Source: Eledone cirrhosa
Lineage: Eukaryota
DNA length: 64,000 bases
Assembly (NCBI GenBank): GCA_964016885.1
Contig: OZ024742.1
Coordinates: 141,794,001-141,858,000 of the forward strand
Reading direction: 5' to 3'
A model generated the notes under the pieces. That model saw only the letters and a program-made list of their open reading frames with translations, had not been told where the DNA came from and made no database searches. The position numbers and the translations under genes are program-made. Positions 10,898-12,708 of this stretch are shown here, piece after piece (the stretch's first letter is position 1; each line of letters starts with the position of its first letter).

Positions 10898-11469
10898 TAT
10901 CGGTTTCAACACACGATTTCAGATAAAGAATCTTGCTAAACAAAATCAGAAACGAAATATATATATATATATATATATATATATATATAAAGGTTTACAT
11001 ATACATAAAGTCATAGATATATATGTTGCAACCGGTCACTTTGTGGCTCTATGAAGAATTAATAAATTAAATAATCAGATCAAGAAATGGTATATATTTT
11101 ATCTAATAATTCTAAGGACATGATTTATGATATATATATGATATATATATATATATATATAAATTGAAACAAAATGAAAACGAAATTTCATTTCTCACTC
11201 TTAGTATGGCACTTACTTAAATGTAAGTATGCATGTATACGTACATACATATATGTATACAGACGTACAGTAGCATGCACATATATATATATATATATAT
11301 ATATACACATATATATACATATGCATACAGGTACACATACATATATGCACGTATCAGTTTAGCGGCGCTAACGTCGCTTTGTTCGTTTGTAAACAAACTG
11401 AACAGCCTGAATTTATGCCATACGGTGTTAAGGCAACCACGTCACCTTTTTGTTCAACACTGACACAGG

Positions 11470-11514
11470 AACGATGTACTAGTTTCAAGCTTGTTAGCTA
11501 TCATCAGCACCGTT
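11470..11514 (-). ncRNA. Minimal type I hammerhead ribozyme, unit 1
   Basis: Minus strand: AACGGUG-CUGAUGA-U-AGCU-AACA-AGCU-U-GAAA-CUAG-UA-CAUCGUU. 7-bp helix I, 4-bp helix II, palindromic ACUAGU helix III, GUA cleavage triplet. Confidence 0.85.
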
Positions 11515-11547
11515 TACCCATCTGCCAGATAGTTGAACGTTCGAAAG

Positions 11548-11595
11548 TATATACTTTCCTTATGAAAATTAACGGCTGAGCAGCCTAATTTGCAT
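11548..11595 (-). promoter_or_regulatory. Octamer (ATGCAAAT) plus TATATA, upstream of the HHR on the ribozyme strand
   Basis: ATTTGCAT at 11588-11595 and TATATA at 11548-11553. Both are retained in the diverged copy near 23582-23630. Confidence 0.4.
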
Positions 11596-11945
11596 ATTGA
11601 GTGAGTTAAATCGGTTAGGCATACCGAAAACGATAAATTGAAACAAAATGAAAACGAAATTTCATTTCTCACTCTTAGTATGGCACTTACTTAAATGTAA
11701 GTATGCATGTATACGTACATACATATATGTATACAGACGTACAGTAGCATGCACATATATATATATATATATATATATATACACATATATATACATATGC
11801 ATACAGGTACACATACATATATGCACGTATCAGTTTAGCGGCGCTAACGTCGCTTTGTTCGTTTGTAAACAAACTGAACAGCCTGAATTTATGCCATACG
11901 GTGTTAAGGCAACCACGTCACCTTTTTGTTCAACACTGACACAGG

Positions 11946-11990
11946 AACGATGTACTAGTTTCAAGCTTGTTAGCTATCATCAGCACCGTT
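11946..11990 (-). ncRNA. Minimal type I hammerhead ribozyme, unit 2
   Basis: Identical to the unit 1 motif. Confidence 0.85.
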
Positions 11991-12421
11991 TACCCATCTG
12001 CCAGATAGTTGAACGTTCGAAAGTATATACTTTCCTTATGAAAATTAACGGCTGAGCAGCCTAATTTGCATATTGAGTGAGTTAAATCGGTTAGGCATAC
12101 CGAAAACGATAAATTGAAACAAAATGAAAACGAAATTTCATTTCTCACTCTTAGTATGGCACTTACTTAAATGTAAGTATGCATGTATACGTACATACAT
12201 ATATGTATACAGACGTACAGTAGCATGCACATATATATATATATATATATATATATACACATATATATACATATGCATACAGGTACACATACATATATGC
12301 ACGTATCAGTTTAGCGGCGCTAACGTCGCTTTGTTCGTTTGTAAACAAACTGAACAGCCTGAATTTATGCCATACGGTGTTAAGGCAACCACGTCACCTT
12401 TTTGTTCAACACTGACACAGG

Positions 12422-12466
12422 AACGATGTACTAGTTTCAAGCTTGTTAGCTATCATCAGCACCGTT
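12422..12466 (-). ncRNA. Minimal type I hammerhead ribozyme, unit 3
   Basis: Identical to the unit 1 motif. Confidence 0.85.
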
Positions 12467-12708
12467 TACCCATCTGCCAGATAGTTGAACGTTCGAAAGT
12501 ATATACTTTCCTTATGAAAATTAACGGCTGAGCAGCCTAATTTGCATATTGAGTGAGTTAAATCGGTTAGGCATATATATATATATATATATATATATAT
12601 ATATATATATATATATATATATATATATATATATATATATATATATATATATATATATATATATACAATATTAAATAAATGGAAAACTATATTTATAAAA
12701 CCATATTT

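Follow-up and report, generated by a model that had tools for sequence, protein, structure and literature searches.

The window analysed here, a stretch of 64,000 nucleotides of the Eledone cirrhosa genome, contains a tandem array at positions 11159..12575, which comprises 2.98 units and whose RNA sense is the minus strand. Tandem Repeats Finder gave a period of 476, 3.0 copies and 99% matches for it. The units are 474, 476 and 465 bp long, the last one (465 bp) being partial, and the sole difference between them is one AT in an internal (TA)n tract (12231..12256, 11755-11780 and 11281-11304), the length of which also differs among arrays. Two other (TA)n tracts flank the array, one at its outer, RNA 3' end (11130..11160, from Tandem Repeats Finder) and one at its truncated, RNA 5' end (12573..12665), where it starts at about position 330 of the unit (u330) with a short overlap. 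The unit comparison and the repeat search thus bear out the three near-identical units with a spacing of 474/476, lying between (TA)n tracts, that had been described in the initial annotation of this DNA. The GC content of the unit is 0.353, and no tRNA gene was found in it. The longest ATG frame in the array (135 aa) runs antisense to the RNA and is open in two units; it crosses the variable TA tract and is broken in the 474-bp unit, which suggests that no reading frame of the unit outlasts the changes in TA length. The earlier description of the units as non-coding is therefore correct overall, with the qualification that this 135-codon antisense frame is open in two of them. An RT plus GIY-YIG frame is absent from the array, which is thus not an autonomous Penelope-like element (PLE).

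A custom type I hammerhead descriptor detected one motif on the minus strand of each of the three units, at 12422..12466 (CUGAUGA at 12459), 11946..11990 (CUGAUGA at 11983) and 11470..11514 (CUGAUGA at 11507). Position 17 falls at 12429, 11953 and 11477, respectively, and the predicted cut lies 3' of each of these nucleotides, at the same positions as those proposed before (about 11477, 11953 and 12429). Two identical 476-nt monomers are predicted between the cut sites on the minus strand, 11953..12428 (numbered u1-u476 from the cut site, 35% GC) and 11477..11952. The predicted folding energy of the monomer is -161.9 kcal/mol (z -7.3 against 100 shuffles), a score that is owed in part to a TA-rich hairpin. 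Helix I of the motif has 7 bp including one G-U, and helix II has 4 bp, is capped by the loop AACA and carries a U-U at the base. Helix III is the palindrome ACUAGU, which had been read from the letters for all three units. No match to the descriptor, loose or strict, was obtained in 100 dinucleotide shuffles of the window. A check with the Rfam model Hammerhead_1 had been recommended; this model was not among the Rfam matches listed for a 6-kb or a 211-bp stretch, and Hammerhead_HH9 scored 18.5 bits where its gathering score is 52, with E values of 0.86 for 6 kb and 0.03 for 211 bp. Since this match is weak, the case for a hammerhead leans on the descriptor together with core conservation and the pattern of variation. 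Rfam matches to microRNAs, far under their gathering scores, were rejected as products of TA/CA repeats.

The initial annotation had called the motif a minimal hammerhead. In PLEs, the minimal form is defined by a long helix II (7-8 bp), a short helix I and little or no helix III (PMC4209133), and the label does not suit a motif with a helix II of 4 bp and a helix I of 6-7 bp with a paired extension. Judged by its sequence, the motif is rather of the canonical metazoan type I form, for which the same source describes a helix I of about 6 bp, a helix II of 4 bp, a helix III of 1-2 bp with a small palindromic loop, and a dimer route; it differs from this form at the helix II base, where a U-U replaces the usual G-C. 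Two axolotl motifs, one with a one-pair helix III and a palindromic loop and one with a U-U at the helix II base, both cleave better as dimers (PMC7229834). In folding calculations on a two-motif stretch of the present family, the forced double hammerhead reached -200.2 kcal/mol versus -190.1 kcal/mol for two single motifs, so that cleavage as a dimer, which had been anticipated, is the predicted route. This cleavage may be slow, and the predicted minimum-energy fold of the stretch is an inactive register-shifted form (-205.1 kcal/mol). Only one of nine dimers tested by Li, Clavereau and Pollet cleaved (bioRxiv 10.64898/2026.07.22.740005).

Common variation among 289 de-duplicated motifs, the counts of which are skewed toward intact cores by the selection of loci, was restricted to four features, namely position 7 of the core, a single base in loop II, the last base of helix I and one base pair within this helix. 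The pair stays paired in its variants, as G-U in 207, U-G in 43 and A-U in 29 of the 289 motifs. When 32 named pairs were followed through 19 representative copies, pairing was kept in 98.4% of the cells. Covariation across copies, put forward earlier as a test of the ribozyme, is present but thin, only 1 of the 32 pairs changing on both sides among these 19 copies, probably in one event. Taken together, the pattern of variation gives modest support for selection on the structure. A hairpin in alignment columns 205-220, just 3' of the long helix, also seems to be preserved between the 476-nt and 424-nt subfamilies, with several paired changes that were judged by eye and left uncounted, the alignment being one base off there.

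As a copy of a large, dispersed, high-copy family, the array in the window, which lies on contig C3, is young and ordinary. A genome-wide copy count, as advised in the initial annotation, gave 10,608 exact 33-nt cores with CUGAUGA and 13,081 matches to the CUGACGA variant pattern in the 3.0-Gb assembly, that is, 23,689 hammerhead cores by two exact patterns, and the reversed-pattern controls gave 0. A 331-bp query returned 494 candidates, and all 40 of the 40 that were scored were 100% identical to it, in agreement with the recent activity that had been supposed. The loci studied further were 53 loci drawn from the first 100 CUGAUGA-core matches, six young long arrays, 40 further stretches and 30 loci from the CUGACGA-variant matches; as all of them lie on one contig (C1), the sample is local and biased to intact cores. 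The spacing from motif to motif in these loci was about 420-540 nt (104 internal units, taken between 380 and 600 nt). Many other hammerhead families are also present in the sampled loci.

By its sequence, the element would be classed with the animal non-LTR retrozymes, as had been proposed, given its tandem units, at least two consecutive full motifs, its high copy number and a non-coding, low-GC unit with no LTR or tRNA part. Like the animal non-LTR retrozymes of PMC7229834, the family consists of non-coding units in tandem, every unit with a single type I hammerhead motif, and shows a GC content below 50%, a highly folded monomer (here predicted), subfamilies of unequal length and PLEs in the same genome. 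Its units, at 420-540 nt, reach or exceed the range of 150-450 given for those retrozymes. Circles were shown for them by northern blot; for the present family, no RNA run appeared among the sequencing runs listed as containing it, and the four runs whose contigs lie on it are of no stated kind and do not bear on expression. The sections of PMC7229834 consulted mention neither inverted arms nor fixed ends nor (TA)n targets, all of which are seen here. The family also resembles the retrozymes of bioRxiv 10.64898/2026.07.22.740005 by having at least two consecutive full-motif units, within 51-972 bp, and a PLE as the proposed driver. The PLE link in that work, which covers 31 vertebrates, 3 insects and a coral, comes from co-occurrence and pseudo-LTR homology; the evidence here is instead an insertion footprint, a homologous pseudo-LTR not having been found in the four PLE-type families considered below (F1-F4). 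The main text of the Octopus vulgaris repeat annotation, by term search, mentions neither ribozyme nor retrozyme (PMC13282606). Neither this family nor such a footprint on a retrozyme was described in the openly accessible main texts that were searched.

The outer 3' ends of the copies land at one of two fixed sites about 60 nt apart, both in predicted unpaired regions, and are followed by (TA)n. Site A (u316-320; 11159..11163 on the minus strand, predicted to be single-stranded) is the long outer end of the family, and site B (u252-261; 11218..11227 on the minus strand, in a predicted hairpin loop) is its short outer end. The 'tail' between sites B and A (11164..11217, minus strand) is about 55-60 nt long and can be compared with that of PMC11167929. 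The array in the window is a solo (non-inverted) insertion that meets (TA)n at site A, does not use site B and has no inverted arm at its locus. Solo arms make up 53 rows, of which 27 have their end at A and 11 have it at B, with (TA)n. At inverted loci, a minus arm is followed by a plus arm and the RNA 5' ends meet centrally. One end at A and the other at B was observed at 42 of the 62 inverted junctions (30 by script and 12 by eye), and clear A+A or B+B pairs at none of the 62; the remaining 20 were indeterminate, owing to an arm end in the internal TA tract, another insertion interrupting or a mis-chained match, and they include one locus (L042) readable as B+B-like. One more long array proved to be A+B once its sequence was extended. 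An independent choice of ends would be expected to yield same-site pairs about half of the time. Site A probably marks a start of reverse transcription. A target site duplication is not readable within the (TA)n flanks.

An inverted head-to-head arm, two fixed 3' ends and a one-sided tail are all found in the family and are the marks of a PLE-mobilised insertion. PLE insertions show a head-to-head arm, a tail that is often one-sided, two internal start sites and AT-rich or (TA)n targets, as this family does (PMC11167929; PMC8557442; Arkhipova et al. 2013, PMC3846280). Two internal start sites have been shown in vitro to delimit the PLE tail (Frangieh et al. 2024, PMC11167929); the tail is often present at one end only, and (TA)n is the favoured target of some clades (Craig et al. 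2021, PMC8557442). The family differs from PLE insertions in having no protein gene, in arms that are multimers of the 476-nt unit, and in a tail of about 60 nt instead of 30-40 nt. Non-autonomous multicopy head-to-tail elements are described in the algal Chlamys clade, in which canonical hammerheads are reported to be absent (PMC8557442).

The same rule of one long and one short end in (TA)n was observed for autonomous PLE families of this genome, at 12 of 13 inverted loci of F2, picked from the match table, and at 9 of 9 of F3. F3 has RVT_1 and GIY-YIG domains (Pfam), and 14 of its copies share 99.95% pairwise identity over 600 bp; no solved structure matching F3 was found. F2 has a 1217-codon frame with an asparagine-rich insert, and many of its copies are 100% identical in protein. 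Both families appear, from their sequences, young enough to be the partner PLEs. F1, with a 713-aa frame, is a further PLE-type candidate; as Pfam gave no family for the F1 or F2 proteins, their PLE label rests on motifs recognized by eye and on tblastn among loci. Further PLE families are present in the genome beyond F1-F4. The F2 copy at L137:982-4632 belongs to a family with frequent inverted pairs that looks currently active, and its hammerhead-like core has a long helix II and a helix I that is not clear.

In the search for a partner, no pseudo-LTR homologous to the unit was found in F1 and F3 (blastn) or in F2 and F4 (by eye), within the short stretches of a 3-Gb genome that were covered. 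The blastn matches obtained in F1 and F3 were discarded as adjacent copies of the 476-bp repeat itself. Linkage to a GIY-YIG/RT gene, which the initial annotation had wished to see checked, was not seen, and no PLE gene adjoined any array among 59 loci inspected by eye in the ORF and blast matches listed. Within 1.5 kb past the coding ends of F3 or F4, no canonical hammerhead core was found except in neighbouring insertions (L143-L171, L243-L256). Such an absence is not usual among PLEs whose nuclease is C-terminal. The 1.5 kb past the coding end of F4 contain internal repeats, each a few hundred bases long. A short resemblance links site A to the short ends of both F3 and F4; its best nominal p, 0.005, is not significant over 140 comparisons (7 queries against 20 PLE-type ends), and we consider this likeness as a lead.

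Since the ends of the retrozyme copies match those of the PLEs of the genome, PLEs likely copy the retrozyme, and the end signatures support the Penelope-type mobilisation that had been suggested. We are thus fairly confident that the array is a young copy of a non-LTR retrozyme, likely copied into (TA)n by the RT and GIY-YIG of a PLE acting in trans. According to this model, the PLE protein would nick both strands of a (TA)n target, and reverse transcription would be initiated internally on the RNA, from site A for one strand and from site B for the other. Each cDNA would extend toward the RNA 5' end across intact ribozyme junctions, and the two cDNAs would be joined head to head, or a single arm would be captured as in the window. 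The ribozyme is predicted to cut mainly as a double hammerhead of two adjacent units, and a monomer circle would then be rather stable. Against this reading, a common (TA)n targeting could make the end motifs seem alike. A more specific version, which we hold to be rather doubtful, is that the retrozyme is a mimic carrying both RT start signals of an active hammerhead-less PLE (F3 or a relative), and not a remnant of the pseudo-LTR of its helper, the one-of-each ends then reflecting one PLE dimer that primes both strands on one multimeric or circular RNA.

The copies also carry information on the RNA that served as template. Upstream of the first 100 matches to u1-25, the core is intact in 83 cases and mutated or partial in 15; one match has a small deletion, and a single copy starts at the predicted cut site. 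If a linear monomer had been cleaved and then primed at A or B, copies would stop at u1, yet only 1 of 100 does so; the template therefore kept the junction, and a cleaved linear monomer was not the template. An intact junction leaves a circle, monomeric or multimeric, or an uncleaved multimer, and we lean slightly to circles, uncleaved linear multimers being almost as probable, while both may be used. At 12 of 45 multi-unit loci, variants occur in all units of the locus and in at most one other sampled locus, four of these loci showing them across both arms. Such locus-wide private variants, together with the near uniformity of young arrays of 6-12 full units, suggest a monomer bottleneck. 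Divergence within the array was lower than that from the nearest other array at 12 of 45 loci, and in most cases homogeneity within arrays was no greater than between them, so that this comparison, in which the arrays of the 420-430-nt subfamily were not counted, does not separate circle from multimer. Minority variants common to both arms were found at 4 of 19 multi-unit inverted loci, and may point to mixed multimer templates or to later conversion or duplication. The re-insertion of monomer circles proposed in the initial annotation is therefore retained for its Penelope-type step, the monomer circle itself being only one of the options. At locus L238 the variants alternate with period two, and locus L257 has a three-unit (partial period-3) pattern in both arms, shifted by one unit; these periodic variants may be a record of multimeric templates.

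The arm-shared minority variants of these 4 of 19 loci, with the period-2 pattern of L238 and the partial period-3 pattern of L257, are also what would be expected if the ribozyme were idle in the spread of a PLE-mobilised repeat, its motif deriving from a pseudo-LTR and uncleaved read-through multimers, with no circle, being the only template. This scenario, which we regard as a tentative possibility, agrees with the predicted inactive minimum fold and with the finding that cleavage is unnecessary for insertion in vitro by the anole PLE (PMC11167929). However, the motif and the flanking long helix stay paired through changes at the subfamily level, and arms of up to 15-18 near-identical units with locus-private variants (12/45) suggest monomer bottlenecks and amplification. 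An idle ribozyme overlaps with our preferred model of a retrozyme copied by a PLE, the template being the sole difference between them.

Improbable in our view is a satellite-like history, in which each locus received a single terminal PLE fragment that unequal crossing-over or slippage subsequently expanded at the DNA level. Later duplications could produce the periodic patterns of L238 and L257, and a DNA-level route is discussed in bioRxiv 10.64898/2026.07.22.740005; however, inverted insertions are multi-unit in both arms with outer ends that obey the A/B rule, long arrays at distant loci are mutually 100% identical, and none of the 59 loci, by eye among the matches listed, has a PLE gene beside its array. 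A LINE-type (e.g. RTE) reverse transcriptase as the mover, or an assembly artefact, is very improbable. In favour of these, LINE-like reading frames are common in the sampled loci (by eye, among the matches listed) and no read spans the window locus; against them, two fixed internal ends, one of each, are a described PLE trait (PMC11167929, PMC8557442), and the family occurs at thousands of loci and is aligned by contigs from four runs of four studies.

The issue addressed here is the identity of the enzyme behind the spread of animal retrozymes and of the template that it copies. According to a 2020 review, the repeats of animal retrozymes show no motif that identifies the helper (PMC7761336). 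The retrozyme class and its link to PLEs are already in print, and the insertion-site evidence is the addition made here. The array is ordinary at its locus and useful as a test system: exact start sites can be predicted for the family, its target sequence is known, and candidate enzymes that are young and intact occur in the same genome, so that the question is directly open to the in vitro PLE assay already in existence.

Several other elements of related kinds were noted. A second tandem hammerhead repeat of about 310 bp, with a similar motif, a U-U at the helix II base, a palindromic helix III and inverted arms, occurs at L034:5760-8000, L137:6305-7940 and L214 (about 2630-3800). Long and short ends in (TA)n were found at two of these three loci, the third extending beyond the sampled stretch, and at L214 the repeat adjoins a copy of the 476-bp family at the internal TA tract of the latter. 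In the window, positions 10508-10957 hold an inverted stub of an F2-related PLE (pseudo-LTR and frame start), whose short end (left) and long end (right) both lie in (TA)n. Right beside the array, at 10010-10317, 12666-12946 and 13008-13313, are stubs of another hammerhead family, with CUGA at 10218 (+), 12765 (-) and 13216 (+); elsewhere, the short and long ends of this family lie about 57 nt and about 147 nt beyond the core, respectively. From about 8800 to 13400, the window holds a cluster of PLE-type insertions with (TA)n tracts between them. Hammerhead-like motifs of other families are present in the window at 8900 (-), 9122 (+), 31327 (-), 36446 (-) and 52282 (+). Finally, Tandem Repeats Finder detected two-copy repeats at 38125-38772 and 49063-49283, with periods of 345 and 110, respectively.
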